Below, piece after piece: positions 6,564 through 20,930 of a stretch of DNA of 26,541 bases. The notes under the pieces were generated by a model, which searched no databases, was not told where the DNA came from, and worked only from the letters and a program-made list of their open reading frames with translations. How positions within the stretch are numbered: position 1 is the first letter of the stretch; every line of letters begins with the position of its first letter. The stretch lies in the IMG/VR virus record IMGVR_UViG_3300037961_000972, positions 1 through 26,541 of that record; one strand, 5' to 3'. Origin of the DNA: a virus. Lineage: Duplodnaviria > Caudoviricetes. The position numbers and the translations under genes were made by a program.

Positions 6564-6567
6564 TTAT

Positions 6568-6682
6568 TTTGCATTACAAACTTTGGCCCAGCCGATGCGT
6601 AATGTACTGCGTACATTACCCATCTCCGTTTCCCTCGCCCACGGGGCTCGGAAAACTGCTCGCCAAAGATTCGTAATGCAAA
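6568..6682 (-). other. Y-shaped secondary-structure element (long closing stem plus two arms)
   Basis: TTTGCATTAC..CTTTGGC / GCCAAAG..GTAATGCAAA closing stem; arm GTAATGTAC-tgc-GTACATTAC; arm TTTCC..GCCC-acg-GGGC..GGAAA; mismatches become G-T and tandem G-A on the minus strand. Confidence 0.75.
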
Positions 6683-6691
6683 GGAGATAAA

Positions 6692-6985
6692 ATGAAGACC
6701 AATATATCTATAGAATTAACTGACGAAGAACGTCTTAACTTAGGTCAAAAATATAATAATACTAACAATAAAAAATTACTTACTCGCAGTGAGCTCAATG
6801 ATATTGTGCAAAATTATGTTAGAGCTTTATTAGATTTTGATGGTACAGTTAAACAAGCTTCAGATGAGTTTATTAAGTATAAACCTAAAATTATTTATTA
6901 CCATAATGGTAGAAAAATACCTAAAAGTGAATGGGACTTAGTGCCAGATGGACCGAGAAAATTTTATGGTATTAGCCAAACATAG
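6692..6985 (+). CDS. Hypothetical protein, 97 aa
   Basis: AAGGAG SD, ATG 6692. Confidence 0.75.
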   Translation: MKTNISIELTDEERLNLGQKYNNTNNKKLLTRSELNDIVQNYVRALLDFDGTVKQASDEFIKYKPKIIYYHNGRKIPKSEWDLVPDGPRKFYGISQT

Positions 6986-6987
6986 AA

Positions 6988-7269
6988 GCCACGCGGTTTA
7001 TTCATGCCGTATTTCCGCAAGCTTGGTGCACTTGTGTGGCCAAACGCACTATAATAGTCACAAGGTTTTAATTTTCGTACCTTATTGAGCAAGCGTGGTT
7101 CACTTGTGTGACGAAACGAACCTATATACCTTAAGTCACAGGTTTTTTTATTTGTAACCTCATGGCAAGCGTGGTTCACTTGTGTGACGAAACGAACCTT
7201 ATTGAATTCCTTGCAGGATAGGGGGTTACACCAAAATCTCGGTAGACTAGCGTGTGTAATCATATAGTC
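6988..7269 (+). ncRNA. Tandem array of structured RNA units (three-way junction + pseudoknot): 3 clear, 1 degenerate
   Basis: 35-nt core GCAAGCGTGGTTCACTTGTGTGACGAAACGAACCT identical at 7089 and 7165, variant at 7017 with compensatory changes in two helices. Confidence 0.7.
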
Positions 7270-7272
7270 AAA

Positions 7273-7510
7273 GAAGGTCGCGCCTTCCATGCACAATGTT
7301 CCCCCGCTTTTTTATGGTACTTCTCAGAGGCTGAGTCGCACTCGTATAAGGGAGAAGCTAAGTTAGTCAGTTAAAACAGATGCATGCCTAGACTGATAAG
7401 CCGTTTTTTACGTTAAGACAGTCAGTTACGACCGAAGAGGCTAGAGATCTCAGAAGCAGTTTGAACCATGCAGCCTACTGCCCTCCTGATACACGACTGT
7501 CTTAGCTTTT
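7273..7510 (+). ncRNA. Additional structured non-coding segment
   Basis: Helices GAAGG/CCTTC, CTCAG/CTGAG, AAGCT 7355/AGCTT 7504, TAAGACAGTC 7414/GACTGTCTTA 7495, AGGCT/AGCCT; no credible ORF; strand uncertain. Confidence 0.4.
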
Positions 7511-7514
7511 ACAT

Positions 7515-7543
7515 AAAAAAAGGCGACTTCTCAGCCGCCTTTT
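7515..7543 (-). terminator. Rho-independent terminator of the inverted gene (possibly bidirectional)
   Basis: Minus strand AGGCGGCT-GAGA-AGTCGCCT then T run; GNRA loop. Confidence 0.85.
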
Positions 7544-7592: not shown

Positions 7593-8069
7593 TTAGCTGA
7601 AGTATCCATATATTGTTATTGTTCCAGCTGCACTTGTAGCAGGAGCAACTTGTACATGAATATCAATTGTGTCATCAGCTGAAAACGCTAGAGGACCTTC
7701 TGCGAATGCTGTGCCAGCATCGTCATCGGAGCTCCAAACACTAGCAATTGAAGAGCCGCCAGCCTGTCCAATAGTTGAACCATCAATAATATCGTCTGAT
7801 GTAGAAGCAGTAGCAGAATCACTGTTACCATAACCTACATCGAGTACAATTGCTGGAGATCCACCAGTATCAATATCAGTAGATTTAATTCTTACTGCAT
7901 GCAGTTCTTCACCTGCAAATACGTCTAACGCTTGAATTACATCATTAACAACTAATGTACCAGTTGAAATAGTTGCTTTACGAACGAATAAGCCACCCGA
8001 AGGAAACTGTTTGTAAGCTGAATTACCTTCAACGTTACCACTTTTAGTTAAATTTGCTATAGTAGCCAT
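7593..8069 (-). CDS. Virion structural protein, capsid cement/decoration-like
   Basis: GAGG SD; beta-rich A/G/T/D composition with NDVIQ, LDVG, DDTIDI, AAGTITI pattern typical of genes that follow podovirus major capsid genes. Confidence 0.6.
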   Translation of the reverse strand: MATIANLTKSGNVEGNSAYKQFPSGGLFVRKATISTGTLVVNDVIQALDVFAGEELHAVRIKSTDIDTGGSPAIVLDVGYGNSDSATASTSDDIIDGSTIGQAGGSSIASVWSSDDDAGTAFAEGPLAFSADDTIDIHVQVAPATSAAGTITIYGYFS

Positions 8070-8360: not shown

Positions 8361-10177
8361 CTACATTGCATAAAAATACTTTAGTTTTAGATTACGAAAC
8401 ATTTTACGATGTTGGTTATTCTCTTACTAAAATGTCTACTGCAGCTTATGTAAACAGTGATCAGTTTTATGTATGGGGCGTTGGTGTTAAGTGGAATGAC
8501 GAACCTACAGAGTGGATCTCAGGCGAAGACATACCTGCTATGTTTGAACAGATACCCTGGGATGAGACCACACTTGTGTGCCACAACACTTTATTTGATG
8601 CTTACATTATGACGCAAATACATGGCGTAAAACCTAGATATTACTGCGACACTGCTGCAATGAGCCGTGGGTTATATCCAAATCAATCTGCAGCTTTGAA
8701 GAGTGTGTGCGAACGCTTATATCCAGACGACAAAAGTATGCGTAAAGGCGATGAATTAGTTAATGCTAAAGGTGTACGTGACTTAGATCCTGAATTAGAA
8801 GAAGTAATAGCTGGATATTGTATACAAGATGTCGATCTAACTTGTGCAATCTTTCACAAAATGATTCAAAACTTTCCTAAAAGCGAACTTGACCTTATTG
8901 ATCTAACAGTCCGCATGTTTGTAGAACCTAAACTAATACTCAACCGCCAACTTTTGATAGACCACAAAGAACAAATAGCTGCTGAAACCGCACAGAAGAT
9001 TGCGGATAGCGGTACAGACAGAGAAACACTCGCTTCACAACCTAAGTTTGCAGCATACATTGAATCCCTGGGTATTACTGTACCTACAAAAAAGTCGCCC
9101 CGCACGGGTGAAATGATACCAGCATTCAGTAAATCAGATGCAGGTTACACACAAATGATGGATATGTATCCTCAGTACAACCACGTATGGGCTGCCAGGG
9201 AAGCTGTAAAGTCACGCATAGAAGAAACGCGTGCCGAACGTTTTCTAACTTCAGTTAACAAAGACGGTACGTTTTCAGTTCCATTACGTTACTACGCGGC
9301 CCATACTGGTAGGTTTGGTGGCTCAGAAAAAATTAACTTACAAAACCTTCCCAGGGGCTCTAAGCTTCGTACTGCATTACAAGCTCCAGATGATAAACTA
9401 CTTTATGTAGCTGACTTATCTAATATAGAAGCTCGTATGCTTGCTTGGCTTGCAAATGAACAAAGTTTGCTCAAGTCATTTGCTGCTGGTAGGGATGTGT
9501 ACTCAGAATTTGCTTCTGAAATATACAATCGTCCTATTACTAAAGCTGACAAGCTTGAAAGATATGTAGGTAAAACCGCTATCTTGGGGCTCGGTTACGG
9601 TATGGGTAAAGATCGTTACAAAGATACGCTACAAAATGGAGCAATTGCAGTGGATGTTACAGAAGAAACTGCACTATCTATTGTAACTGCTTATCGCACT
9701 ATGTACCCAAACATCCCCAGCCTTTGGAATGTATGTAAACAGTTTTTATACGGAATGATGGATCGAGCACAACACGGTAATGTATTTGGCCCCATTACAG
9801 TTTCAAACAACGCCCTTCAGCTGCCTAATGGTATGTTCTTAAAATATCCTCATTTAACATACAGTTACGGTGATTTCTTGTACACCCAAAAAATAAATCG
9901 ACCGCCGATACGGACTCATGGACCACGTGTATGTGAAAATGTTATACAAGCATTGTCGCGCATTGTCATTACAGATCAGCTGCTTACCATTAATAACAGT
10001 ATGCCTGAAGTAGATGTTGTACTTACAGTGCACGATGAGATTATATGTGTAGGTCCTATTACAAATCCAAACGAGACATTAGATAAAATTATAGCTATAA
10101 TGAAAACACCCCCTTCGTGGTGCAAAGATCTGCCCCTAGACGCTGAAGGTGGCTACAGTAAGGTATACGACAAGTAA
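8357..10177 (+). CDS. polA: Family A DNA polymerase with 3'-5' exonuclease (Leu762 type)
   Basis: ExoI LDYET, ExoII HNTLFD, ExoIII YCIQD, TGRFGG..NLQNLP, motif A DLSNIEAR, motif B RYVGKTAILGLGYG, motif C VHDE. Confidence 0.97.
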   Translation: MTTLHKNTLVLDYETFYDVGYSLTKMSTAAYVNSDQFYVWGVGVKWNDEPTEWISGEDIPAMFEQIPWDETTLVCHNTLFDAYIMTQIHGVKPRYYCDTAAMSRGLYPNQSAALKSVCERLYPDDKSMRKGDELVNAKGVRDLDPELEEVIAGYCIQDVDLTCAIFHKMIQNFPKSELDLIDLTVRMFVEPKLILNRQLLIDHKEQIAAETAQKIADSGTDRETLASQPKFAAYIESLGITVPTKKSPRTGEMIPAFSKSDAGYTQMMDMYPQYNHVWAAREAVKSRIEETRAERFLTSVNKDGTFSVPLRYYAAHTGRFGGSEKINLQNLPRGSKLRTALQAPDDKLLYVADLSNIEARMLAWLANEQSLLKSFAAGRDVYSEFASEIYNRPITKADKLERYVGKTAILGLGYGMGKDRYKDTLQNGAIAVDVTEETALSIVTAYRTMYPNIPSLWNVCKQFLYGMMDRAQHGNVFGPITVSNNALQLPNGMFLKYPHLTYSYGDFLYTQKINRPPIRTHGPRVCENVIQALSRIVITDQLLTINNSMPEVDVVLTVHDEIICVGPITNPNETLDKIIAIMKTPPSWCKDLPLDAEGGYSKVYDK

Positions 10178-10362
10178 TGAGTAATCTTATTCTTACAAGA
10201 AGAATTAATGAATCTATTGTGCTTTACAAAGAAGACCAGCCAGATGAAATACTGTGTAAAATTATGGTTACTTCTTTAGGGAACAAACAAGTACGTCTAG
10301 CTTTTGAAGCAGATTTAGATTTAAAAATAGATCGTCAAGAGCTATATAACAAACGTAAATAA
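10177..10362 (+). CDS. csrA: CsrA/RsmA-like RNA-binding translational regulator
   Basis: LILTRRINESI...QVRLAFEA...IDRQELY aligns to CsrA MLILTRRVGETL...QVRIGVNAP...HREEIY, with the R44 equivalent kept. Confidence 0.88.
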   Translation: MSNLILTRRINESIVLYKEDQPDEILCKIMVTSLGNKQVRLAFEADLDLKIDRQELYNKRK

Positions 10363-17957: not shown

Positions 17958-19064
17958 TTAACTCCCCTGTTTAATTGTAATTGAAGAAGCACTACCACCA
18001 TTTGTGCTTACCTGGTTTGTTTTACCTCCTTGTTCTATTCTAATATCATAACTTCCTTCTTTAGAAACTTGTAGCTGTAAGTTGTTTTCTACTTGTCTAA
18101 TAAATTTAACTTCACTTTCATTAACAAAAGTGCTTATTTGAGTATCGCTATCAAATCCTATAGCTGTACCTCTTACACCTTGTTGGCTTAAAGTACTACT
18201 TGCTTTAGAAAGCTCATCTACTTCTTGTATTATATCTAACAAATCTTCAAGAAAATTAGCTGCAAGATAATCTATATCTAGTTCTGTATACTCTAAATCA
18301 TCTTGTTCTAGTTCGTCTGTATCGAGTTCATCAAACTCAAGAAAATCAACATCTAAAATACCATTATTATTTGCACTAGTTTCTTCACCTGTGCCATCTT
18401 CAGCTGCAGACGGTGGGTTTACAATCAACATGTTGTCTATCATATCGACAGTAAGATCAAGAATAACAGCAGGAGTAGGAGCTGTTTCAAAGTTGTAAAC
18501 TGTTGTGCTCTCATACGGCCTGTTTAATATAACTTGTCCTAAAGCTGTATCTACCGTTATTTCTCCACTAGCATTACCAAACTCATCAGGTAAAAGTATA
18601 ACCAAAGCTTCACCCGTCTCTTTTACAGTAATTGTAAAGTCTGTTCCCCTTATACCTACTACTGCTGCATGAGTTCTAATTGTAATGTTATCTTTAGGAA
18701 TGCGTGGCTTTTTGCTAGATATAAAACGCCCCGTCCCTTTGATAAAATTAAGAGCCATTGTTGATTTGGCGGGATCAGGATCAAACACAAACTCATCTAT
18801 TACAACGTTGCTATGTTCAGTCAAACGTATAGTTGTCTCATCCCTAAACGTTACACCCATACGTCCCGCTGCGGTTTCTAGTTTGTCCATAGAGTTTAGT
18901 GAAAAATTAATTTCACTTTCATATGGCTTATCTCTTACTACTCTGGTGTTTCCGTTTAATTCTGTGATATTACCAATATCAACATCCAACGCTTGAGCCC
19001 TGGTCATTTTGCTGTACGCACACGGACCCATTATTACCAGAAGAAGTAATGCGTAACCAGTCAT
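17958..19064 (-). CDS. Exported FecR-domain protein
   Basis: Signal-like MTGYALLLLVIMG; D.LET..GR..VTF.D.T.IRL.E.S.V.ID, IRT..AVVGIRGTDF FecR pattern; acidic linker. Confidence 0.8.
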   Translation of the reverse strand: MTGYALLLLVIMGPCAYSKMTRAQALDVDIGNITELNGNTRVVRDKPYESEINFSLNSMDKLETAAGRMGVTFRDETTIRLTEHSNVVIDEFVFDPDPAKSTMALNFIKGTGRFISSKKPRIPKDNITIRTHAAVVGIRGTDFTITVKETGEALVILLPDEFGNASGEITVDTALGQVILNRPYESTTVYNFETAPTPAVILDLTVDMIDNMLIVNPPSAAEDGTGEETSANNNGILDVDFLEFDELDTDELEQDDLEYTELDIDYLAANFLEDLLDIIQEVDELSKASSTLSQQGVRGTAIGFDSDTQISTFVNESEVKFIRQVENNLQLQVSKEGSYDIRIEQGGKTNQVSTNGGSASSITIKQGS

Positions 19065-19710
19065 TGTCTTGCGTAGATGTTTGATCAATGTCAAAGCTCC
19101 TTGTATTACCATCATGTTCTAGTTTAAAGTAACCACCAGCATAGCCTGATTGCACAACATCTACTGTATTTGAATCGCCATCAAGATCTATGTAGTTTGT
19201 ACCTGAGTCTACATCTAAATCAATATGAACAGTGTTACTACTACCTTGCACTATCGTATCTATATCTGCACTACTAGCTAAAGAATTTGTAGCTAAATCC
19301 AGTGTAAAGGTGTTAGTTGACCCGTCCACGTCCACATTTACGTTTGATGAATCTGCACTATTCGCATTACCAGGATCAACTTGAATAGTGTAAGAGTTTG
19401 TATCCCCATCAAAATCAAATACACCAGTAAATGTATCTGCATTAATATCGCCTAACATCTTGTTATTATTACCTATTTGGTTCACATCTAATGTCATAGT
19501 TGCACCATCAAGGTCGAACGCGGTCATAGAACCGTGTGCACTGTTCAAACCACCTATAATATTCCCACTTCCTAATTGTTCTAAATCAATACTAGCTGTT
19601 GCACCAATTTGATCTACATATATTTCGTTATCGTCAGCATTAGTACTTACTGCATAAACAAGTAAAGTTAAAAGAACAACTGCTGTAACTTTATTAAATT
19701 TATCATTCAT
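18979..19710 (-). CDS. Curlin-like (CsgA/CsgB-like) repeat protein
   Basis: Signal peptide; repeated hydrophobic-x-Q/D-x-G-x-x-N units (EQLGSGN, NQIGNNN, VQGSSN, DGDSN); directly downstream of csgG. Confidence 0.75.
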   Translation of the reverse strand: MNDKFNKVTAVVLLTLLVYAVSTNADDNEIYVDQIGATASIDLEQLGSGNIIGGLNSAHGSMTAFDLDGATMTLDVNQIGNNNKMLGDINADTFTGVFDFDGDTNSYTIQVDPGNANSADSSNVNVDVDGSTNTFTLDLATNSLASSADIDTIVQGSSNTVHIDLDVDSGTNYIDLDGDSNTVDVVQSGYAGGYFKLEHDGNTRSFDIDQTSTQDNDWLRITSSGNNGSVCVQQNDQGSSVGC

Positions 19711-20509
19711 ATTCCCAATACCCTCTTTCAATACCTATTTTTACAATTTCTAAAATACCTGTTTCAATTGCTTTTTGTAGAGCAATAGATGTGCTTTCGT
19801 TTTCTGCTACTCCTCCTTCTACTTCTATTAAACGACTGCCTTCATCAATAAACCTAAAAACATCTTGCGAAAGACCTACTGATAAAACTTTTTTAGAAGT
19901 AAGCACTTCTATTAGTATCTCTCCTGTAGATACTGAAACCACTCTTAATGATACACTAACAGTGTCTTCTCTATACTGTTTACTAGTTCCTATTCCAAGA
20001 TAACGCGCACCCGCTCCACCTGATCTTGTGTTAACATCGTAAGAAATAACTCCACCTTGCATCAACAAACCTGCTAATAATAAAGGTTTTACACGGCTTT
20101 CTTCATCAAAAGTCTCACGTGTGCTGCGAATTAACTGTCTTTCTTTAGTCAAAGAGTCAAGCCCAACACGTTCTACAACTTTAAAAAAATTTCCGCTAGA
20201 TGCGTGTTTTAAAGCACGAATTAAAAATGCTTCAGGTGCTTGTGTAATTGCTGTACTAAACAACGCAAACTCACTATTACTCTTCCTTTGTCCTGTTAAG
20301 TCCTGCAAACTATTACTATATACTGCAATAACAGGTTGTCTTTTTGCTGGAGGTAAATCTTGTAATTCTTGCAACTGTAATTGCATAATAGAAGAACTTT
20401 GAATCACTACACTAGGTATACCATTACCTTCTAGCAAATTTTTAGAAGCACAACTAGAAAGTAAAACTAGCAGTGGGTACAGAAATCGTTGTAATATCCC
20501 CGTTTTCAT
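19703..20509 (-). CDS. csgG: Curli secretion channel lipoprotein CsgG
   Basis: Lipobox LSSC; DLTGQRK, FSTAITQ, VVERVGL..LTKERQLIR, SGGAGARYLGIG, VSLRVVSVSTGEIL. Confidence 0.95.
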   Translation of the reverse strand: MKTGILQRFLYPLLVLLSSCASKNLLEGNGIPSVVIQSSSIMQLQLQELQDLPPAKRQPVIAVYSNSLQDLTGQRKSNSEFALFSTAITQAPEAFLIRALKHASSGNFFKVVERVGLDSLTKERQLIRSTRETFDEESRVKPLLLAGLLMQGGVISYDVNTRSGGAGARYLGIGTSKQYREDTVSVSLRVVSVSTGEILIEVLTSKKVLSVGLSQDVFRFIDEGSRLIEVEGGVAENESTSIALQKAIETGILEIVKIGIERGYWEYE

Positions 20510-20930
20510 CCGTTATAGTCAAAGTAATTACTTCAGCTTCTACTGTGTATTCTAAAATATTTCCTTCTAGCTCCAATTTACCTTCTGTGCTTGGGTTTTC
20601 TCCGAACAGCTGTTCAACTAGCTGCCGTGATAACTGTGCATACACCCTAGATTCAAAATTTCTAATAAACCTGCTAAGGGTAGAATTAGATTCTTCTCGT
20701 TCAGCTTCTTCAATTAATGACTTTGCCTCCTCAATTTTAGTTTGGCGTCTTGTAGCTTCTTGATTCTCAATTGTAAGATAATGCGAACTGCTATTTATTC
20801 CTGAAAAACTAGGACTTTTAAACTTATATACCAACTCGTCTGCATTACTGTAAACGTTAAGCAGTAACAAAAACAAAGCTACATAAATATATATGCCAAA
20901 AAACCAGTGCCAATTACTTTTCATTCTCAT
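20454..20930 (-). CDS. csgF: Curli assembly protein CsgF-like
   Basis: Signal peptide, mature ELVYKFKSPSFSG (compare CsgF FQFRNPNFGG); upstream of csgG. Confidence 0.82.
   Translation of the reverse strand: MRMKSNWHWFFGIYIYVALFLLLLNVYSNADELVYKFKSPSFSGINSSSHYLTIENQEATRRQTKIEEAKSLIEEAEREESNSTLSRFIRNFESRVYAQLSRQLVEQLFGENPSTEGKLELEGNILEYTVEAEVITLTITDENGDITTISVPTASFTF

Follow-up and report, generated by a model that had tools for sequence, protein, structure and literature searches.

Class 1 exoribonuclease-resistant RNAs (xrRNAs) of flaviviruses, with subclasses 1a and 1b, consist of a three-way junction of the helices P1, P2 and P3 and a pseudoknot between the P3 loop (L3) and the 3' tail, and they occur in tandem after the coding region (PMC8374639, PMC7527734). 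The lengths of P1 and P3 are fixed; the orientation of P2, away from the ring, lets this helix vary (PMC7527734). The sections of both papers on which we draw describe xrRNAs from eukaryotic RNA viruses only (PMC8374639, PMC7527734).

Tandem pseudoknotted repeats with variable copy number are also the form of the type III antitoxins (ToxI, AbiQ, CptI) and of the pseudo-ToxI of phage TE. Guide arrays, such as those of CRISPR and TIGR, combine a constant scaffold with variable segments in an arrayed order. The C4 RNA folds into a cloverleaf, and Hfq-independent sRNAs have C-rich seed loops. The C4 antisense RNA of phages P1 and P7 acts on translation of its target ant, and trans-encoded sRNAs, including the phage RNAs PreS and VpdS, are short and direct imperfect seeds at regions of translation initiation (PMC12197685). 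The words 'pseudoknot', 'tandem' and 'array' do not occur in this review (PMC12197685).

We analysed a window of 26.5 kb, the whole stretch of a virus record that is 44% complete. It contains three RNA units that belong to a genuine family of phage RNAs, one that seems to be undescribed and extends far beyond the array in the window. The units share with class 1 xrRNAs the three-way junction, the pairing of L3 with the 3' tail (PK2), fixed P1 and P3, a variable P2 and the occurrence of tandem copies. Hence, the xrRNA-like topology proposed in the earlier note on this DNA was confirmed as far as the class 1 helix order is concerned. In contrast to class 1 xrRNAs, in which PK1 comprises 2-3 bp with a conserved G-C pair, the units show no PK1 (11 of 58 units, versus 10.9 in the swapped control), and because PK1 was not seen we did not file them as class 1 xrRNAs. 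Furthermore, the parsed units have no unpaired bases between P3 and P1, their P2-P3 linker is variable (4-9 nt), they originate from dsDNA phages, and they carry an anti-Shine-Dalgarno (anti-SD) arm. Class 1 xrRNAs form a U-A-U or C-G-C triple with the 5' end. Position −1 of the units is an A, and not U or C, in 29 of 33 arm clusters. The class 1 ring measures 15-16 nt, compared with about 16-18 nt, by count on the sequence alone, for the strand closed by the knot in the units.

Unlike type III antitoxins, the units have a three-way junction and differing arms, are mostly present in single copy, and are not accompanied by a toxin ORF after the terminator; the flanking ORFs include no member of the ToxN, CptN, TenpN or AbiQ families. 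The earlier suggestion of a type III antitoxin mimic is not supported, since there is no toxin gene, the units are not identical, and they have no conserved cleavage linker. C4 RNA offers the parallel of a phage antisense RNA acting on target translation, but the units have a pseudoknot core, no Rfam match and no self-targets in the phage genome. As in CRISPR and TIGR arrays, a constant scaffold is combined with variable segments, but the units lack an adjacent effector protein, their arms are structured hairpins, and no perfect matches to the arms were found.

Knotted units and other RNA modules in a gap between phage genes

The window encodes a family A DNA polymerase, a primase, a helicase, a CsrA-like protein and the curli proteins CsgF and CsgG. 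Its primase is 28-30% identical to the closest cultured primases. The genes for CsgF, CsgG and a FecR-domain protein lie at 17958-20930, and relatives of CsgG occur in HTVC008M and Melnitz phages. A tRNA scan found none. Related records suggest a marine origin of the window, and the carriers of the unit are likely marine.

The unit array occupies the gap between the end of a plus-strand gene run and a terminator-like hairpin (7518..7543). The last gene of this run is a 97-aa ORF (6692..6985, plus strand), which is also present in relatives without units and is therefore not a dedicated partner of the units. The hairpin, found on the minus strand and with symmetric A/U runs, has no defined strand; it separates the RNA cluster from the convergent ORF 7593-8069. 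A long minus-strand ORF (6964-7296) that overlaps the units was taken as spurious, because close relatives gain or lose whole units here. ORF 7593-8069 is a lone, structural-looking minus-strand gene between two plus-strand gene runs. It has no Pfam or PHROG match, and in some relatives its counterpart sits inside the virion gene block. Upstream of the array, a long three-way structure (6566..6684, plus strand) ends on the ribosome-binding site of ORF 6692. This very stable structure (z = −6.4 relative to mononucleotide-shuffled sequence), which has a long outer stem, is a different element from the units. It is kept in close relatives and has no Rfam match.

The coordinates and helices that had been proposed for units 1-3 held up. 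Unit 1 (6988..7050, plus strand; 59 bits with model R3) begins 2 nt past the stop codon of ORF 6692-6985. It consists of P1 (6988-92/7036-40), a P2 arm (6993-7016) with the P2 helix at 6993-97/7006-10, P3 (7017-21/7031-35) with a 9-nt L3, a 5-nt linker and the knot (7025-29/7046-50). Its arm has the word AUUCAU in the loop and CC within the P2-P3 linker. Unit 2 (7057..7122, plus strand; R3, 75 bits) has a unit 1-type core with a different arm (7062-7088), and unit 3 (7135..7198, plus strand; R3, 69 bits) has the core of unit 2 with a third arm (7140-7164). The 35-nt 3' core is identical between units 2 and 3, while unit 1 is 80% identical to that core. AU-rich linkers between the units (7051-7056 and 7123-7134, within 7051..7134, plus strand) are predicted processing sites. 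The YAT linker and U-rich loop, which had been read as parts of every unit, are features of this locus and not of the family, in which the linker between P2 and P3 varies and many loops are C-rich.

A sequence-free structure descriptor, applied to 1.52 Mb of both-strand sequence, retrieved only units 1-3 and family members (10 distinct matches), and the same pairing rules gave no matches in 265 kb of shuffled window. The folding energy of single units was ordinary (z = −0.16 to −0.32), so that the support for the units comes from covariation and not from stability. The plus strand is favoured, because 13 G.U pairs in P1 and the knot of 31 units would become A.C mismatches on the other strand.

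A compact fourth unit had also been claimed. Its knot is real and covaries in six variants, but it lacks P2 and a consistent P3, and it was missed by the models, matching neither family model R1 nor R3 (filters off, E ≤ 10). It is a separate knotted motif (7224-7270) inside a larger module (about 7205..7308, plus strand), and not a member of the family. This module comprises a stem, a 5-bp knot, a hairpin and an outer pairing of a G-run with a C-run; both the knot and the next hairpin covary across the six variants.

Further modules follow. An optional module (7308..7404, plus strand) is deleted between U-runs in some relatives, with a joint from 7307 to 7404 in runs X2 and X3. Among the three runs searched, X1 was the only RNA run. 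It gave no contigs on the units, which, with contigs only, is uninformative on transcription, and one 171-nt contig over 7310-7430 (again from contigs only). The latter contig continues with sequence similar to the beginning of the module, as would be seen in a repeat or a circle. A long-stem module downstream (7410..7510, plus strand) is kept in close relatives, with z = −2.2 against mononucleotide shuffles, and has a CCUCC-like tract. In a contig of run X3, the core of this module (7437-7482) lies inside a different complementary outer stem. The gap is a cluster of several RNA modules that are gained and lost between relatives.

A covarying family with a fixed core

The suspicion that this is an undescribed phage RNA motif was borne out by our searches. 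Rfam 15 gave no match in the window at the gathering threshold, none on the units at E ≤ 10, and none at E ≤ 1 across 20 homolog loci. In GenBank phages, three unit queries had no match and the wider region gave chance-level matches only. In GTDB genomes, an early narrow pattern found two matches, neither with the knot or P1, from which absence in bacteria does not follow. The literature searched, exclusive of bioRxiv supplements and subscription papers, contained no description of the unit family, and its core words were absent. Six supplements of PMC10690425 do not contain the motif; the large files 1, 2 and 4 of that paper lay outside the search and may list an unnamed candidate.

Search patterns were relaxed stepwise. 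Freeing P1 yielded 12 new loci, with P1 sequences that were wholly different yet paired. The final pattern placed no constraint on the two middle pairs of the knot or on the 3' base of its outer pair. Of its 102 matches at 100 loci, 67 (at 65 loci) nevertheless paired at all five knot positions, compared with about 6 expected by simple arithmetic. The 65 full-knot loci lie on 61 viral contigs (58 once three without P1 are removed). A metagenome scan with the early narrow pattern found 18 full-knot contigs among 118 loci, some of which duplicate viral records. From 64 parses we dropped two without P1 and two mis-parsed long-arm duplicates, which left 60 distinct complete units (58 after removal of two without a parsed P2) with 52 arms in 33 arm clusters, from at least five phage lineages.

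The helices of the family change yet keep their pairing, as had been noticed among the units of the window. In 44 units aligned by fitting to the family model, 98.9% of the pair cells were standard, compared with 30-46% in slid-alignment controls. Moreover, 103 pair cells were changed on both sides, versus 27 in shuffles, and such changes affected all five P1 pairs and three of the five knot pairs. The conservation of P3 is partly ascertained, because the search patterns largely fixed this helix; one unit has a compensatory P3 change. The P2 helix scored 11.7, versus 2.7 in shuffled arms, for arms that were parsed with P2 required. Several features are invariant among the units found: a U and an A at positions 3 and 9 of the loop, G-C as knot pairs 2 and 5, and an AC preceding the knot, which the pattern also constrained. 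The P1 3' strand plus the linker measures 9-11 nt in all 60 units. The core of P1, P3 and knot is constant in length and nearly invariant in unrelated phages; the P2 arm ranges from about 20 to 74 nt.

Two other elements resemble the core. In three large phage records (L352, L359 and L427, around 500-536), P3, the loop and the knot occur without P1 and without a match to R3. These loci were left out of the family, of which they are possibly a reduced cousin. At L334:355-440, an intergenic element combines P3 and the loop of the family with a longer knot and with a P1 that is AU-rich. It has no match to R2 and is a possible distant member.

Carriers belong to at least five unrelated phage types, among them the type of the window. 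An HTVC023P-like type has capsid proteins 60-63% identical to those of HTVC023P, DSL-LC04 and 023Pt_psg01. Further types are integrase-bearing (G037), small siphovirus-like (G044) or of the G008/G041 types, and the G+C content of the carriers is 34-48%. Six near-complete carrier genomes have only structural or replication proteins in common and share no accessory protein; therefore, any partner of the unit is probably a host factor. The unit is an accessory element. It was present in 4 of 20 records in one survey, all four already known as carriers, and its pattern was found in none of five cultured relatives. More distant relatives of ORF 7593-8069 have no unit at this site. A tie to a serine recombinase gene was ruled out, as none of 68 loci with recombinase relatives has a unit. 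In L085, L185 and L188, a 14-nt palindrome lies just upstream of the first unit, between the stop of an ORF and the unit and upstream of a serine recombinase; we take it to resemble a parS site.

Most carriers have a single copy of the unit, which measures 65-70 nt, while tandems of two or three occur in several lineages, with arms that differ within each array. The tandem arrangement is thus incidental, which the earlier note had missed. We considered whether the unit is a decoy, of which the knot face, or a CUCC loop resembling the 16S 3' end, binds or distracts a host defence nuclease, toxin or RNA-binding protein; the idea of a pseudo-antitoxin is included here. The near-invariance of the core in unrelated phages, the variation in copy number from 1 to 3 among close relatives and the lack of a common phage partner protein would all suit a decoy. 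Phage TE is described to expand its pseudo-ToxI repeats (PMC5086642), but type III antitoxins are plain H-type knots beside a toxin gene. Moreover, tandem copies of the unit have different arms instead of being amplified identical ones, the linkers have no cleavage word in common, and the 14 neighbouring ORFs include no defence protein, save for one weak match (E = 0.008). We therefore regard a decoy as distinctly unlikely.

Of the 60 units, 23 start at a stop codon (−15 to +4 nt), 9 behind another unit and 5 behind a promoter-like site, with 23 placed otherwise; the background was 40 of 3778 positions. A readthrough signal was ruled out, because the spacing from the stop ranges between −12 and +3 and many units have no such stop. 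Starts at stop codons, behind other units and behind promoter-like sites would agree with an xrRNA-like nuclease roadblock or 5' stabiliser acting in cis, in which the knot would halt 5'-3' degradation or conceal the 5' end, so that the downstream RNA (an ORF or modules) persists, and the arm is neutral. The class 1 helix order, with likewise fixed P1 and P3 and variable P2, would agree as well, and the position of tandem copies ahead of other RNA modules is reminiscent of flaviviral 3' UTRs. However, a roadblock leaves the anti-SD enrichment described below unexplained, and no PK1-like pairing between the 5' leader and the junction was seen. Some members also have nothing downstream to protect, such as the unit of L429, which is followed by a terminator-like hairpin. 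A roadblock seems unlikely to us; it would not conflict with the scaffold part of the sRNA reading proposed below.

Placement at gene junctions would also fit a new self-cleaving ribozyme that frees the units or the downstream RNA, as would the A at position −1 together with the G that is the first P1 base in 27 of 33 clusters. In units 1-3, however, the core words of hammerhead, HDV and twister ribozymes are absent, apart from a lone GAAAC, and the family has few invariant unpaired bases. The units follow no known ribozyme consensus and have no match to an Rfam ribozyme, so that a known ribozyme is not supported; a new one is extremely improbable.

The P2 arm and its pairing potential

The P2 arm is the variable part of the unit, a feature that the earlier note had overlooked. 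It is either a hairpin of about 20-30 nt or a multi-stem insert of 44-74 nt, of which there are three groups. Long multi-hairpin arms in the same scaffold occur at L092:1244-1353 and L188:1487-1601 and in L358, L387, L434, L406 and L414, and one long-arm type is common to two unrelated phage lineages. Across arms, loop words are retained while stems are altered.

The motif CCUCC is the anti-SD motif of the 16S 3' end. The words CUCC or CCUC were found in the P2 loop in 16 of 33 arm clusters, compared with 3.8 expected from loop shuffles, where the clusters (70% identity) are not fully independent and the shuffles preserve composition but not ancestry. The anti-SD idea was noted after the first 18 arms, and later sets were then tested. 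The words occurred in 5 of 14 clusters in the discovery set (0.64 expected), in 3 of 6 in a second set (1.0 expected) and in 8 of 13 in the set found last, after the idea had been noted (2.0 expected). In contrast, the mirror control words GGAG and GAGG occurred once in loops versus 0.66 expected. The remaining 17 clusters lack CUCC and CCUC in the loop; they include all three arms of the window, which have CC in the stem or linker only.

P2 also has a polarity. In 28 of 32 clusters it combines a purine-rich 5' strand with a CC-bearing pyrimidine 3' strand, while P1 is wholly changed. A CC tract lies past the 5' strand in all 27 arms tested, and the three arms of the first set whose stems lack GG/CC all have a CUCC loop. 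Two non-RNA runs from one sample contributed one further arm, with a CC-bearing loop. An anti-start-codon word at SD spacing was not significant (4 of 18 versus 1.66, p = 0.07; 9 versus 6.8, p = 0.18). The anti-SD signal in the arm, likewise overlooked in the earlier note, points to base-pairing regulation rather than to a pure decoy or roadblock; alternatively, the CC-rich loop could be a protein-binding or cleavage signal.

With trans-acting sRNAs the units share an exposed seed complementary to start regions, although the complementarity is of a generic anti-SD kind only. They differ from trans-encoded sRNAs in that one conserved pseudoknot scaffold carries many different seeds, in arrays. 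The CsrA-like protein of the window (10177-10362), if active, would also target GGA-bearing ribosome-binding sites, the same kind of site that the arms match.

An SD sequence with an ATG lies within 50 nt downstream in only 12 of 33 clusters, where the start codon is 20-33 nt away and the downstream genes are unrelated. Pairing in cis with the unit's own downstream ribosome-binding site was rejected, as the own start was no better than swapped starts (p = 0.86, 14 units). In L351, L394, L398 and L446, a conserved hydrophobic ORF of 21-25 codons lies about 100-170 nt downstream of the unit. This ORF has its own promoter-like site and a structured leader and is, by eye, reminiscent of small membrane peptides.

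These results bear on a riboswitch or translational switch in cis, in which a ligand would bind to the knot and P2 would alternate between self-pairing and pairing with the downstream SD. Such a switch would be in line with the conserved unpaired U, A and AC of the core, with the 12 clusters that precede a start codon, and with the SD-like/anti-SD layout of P2, which resembles an expression platform. But the arms show no preference for their own SD, the unrelated downstream genes are swapped while the unit stays, and the array in the window has no same-strand ORF downstream. A switch of this kind is thus very unlikely.

Own-genome start sites matched the arms at p < 0.05 for 2 of 35 arms (Fisher p = 0.82), and the longest own-genome complement reached p < 0.05 in 1 of 24 tests. 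The arm of L006 has a 14-nt perfect complement near 9017 in G005:C1 (p = 0.007, 1 of 24 tests), inside a reading frame and probably by chance; the site lies in a small ORF upstream of the DNA polymerase. A start-site match in G037 proved to be an internal methionine, and the site of one candidate target was not kept in the relative that was checked. Hence, specific targets were not found in the phage genomes searched.

A proposed small RNA with exchangeable guides

With a covarying fold, variable arms enriched in anti-SD words and no targets in cis, the unit may, at somewhat less than an even chance, be a trans-acting phage sRNA, the arm of which pairs with ribosome-binding sites of host mRNAs and blocks their translation. 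The RNA would either have a promoter of its own or form the end of a longer transcript, and a host endonuclease would then cut at the AU-rich flanks. P3 and the 5-bp knot would form an H-type pseudoknot, whose long loop would capture the 5' end through P1, an arrangement that would protect both ends against exonucleases or provide a docking site for a host factor. P2 would point away from the core and carry the guide. The processing, the nuclease resistance, the host targets and the repression are inferences. The guide could be exposed in two ways: the loop would show CUCC or CCUC directly, or the CC-bearing 3' strand of P2 would be held by the SD-like 5' strand until displaced by the target. 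An array whose arms differ would act on several mRNAs in parallel.

In its widest form, this proposal envisages a natural, programmable RNA-silencing platform among marine phages. Its xrRNA-like chassis would be nuclease-proof or serve as a handle for a host factor, and its swappable, arrayed guides would silence host mRNAs, for example those of defence genes, without any phage protein. A swappable-guide platform would be a categorically new kind of system, and we consider it doubtful at present, though conceivable.

The firm outcome of this work is a new RNA family with strong covariation, which occurs in unrelated phages and shares its helix order with flaviviral xrRNAs. If the units act as a roadblock, they would be the bacterial-virus counterpart of xrRNAs. 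If they are sRNAs, phages would regulate translation in the host through interchangeable guides on a constant scaffold, and the chassis of 65 nt could become a compact, stable tool for engineered sRNAs. The arms would then list host genes that matter during infection of uncultured marine bacteria.
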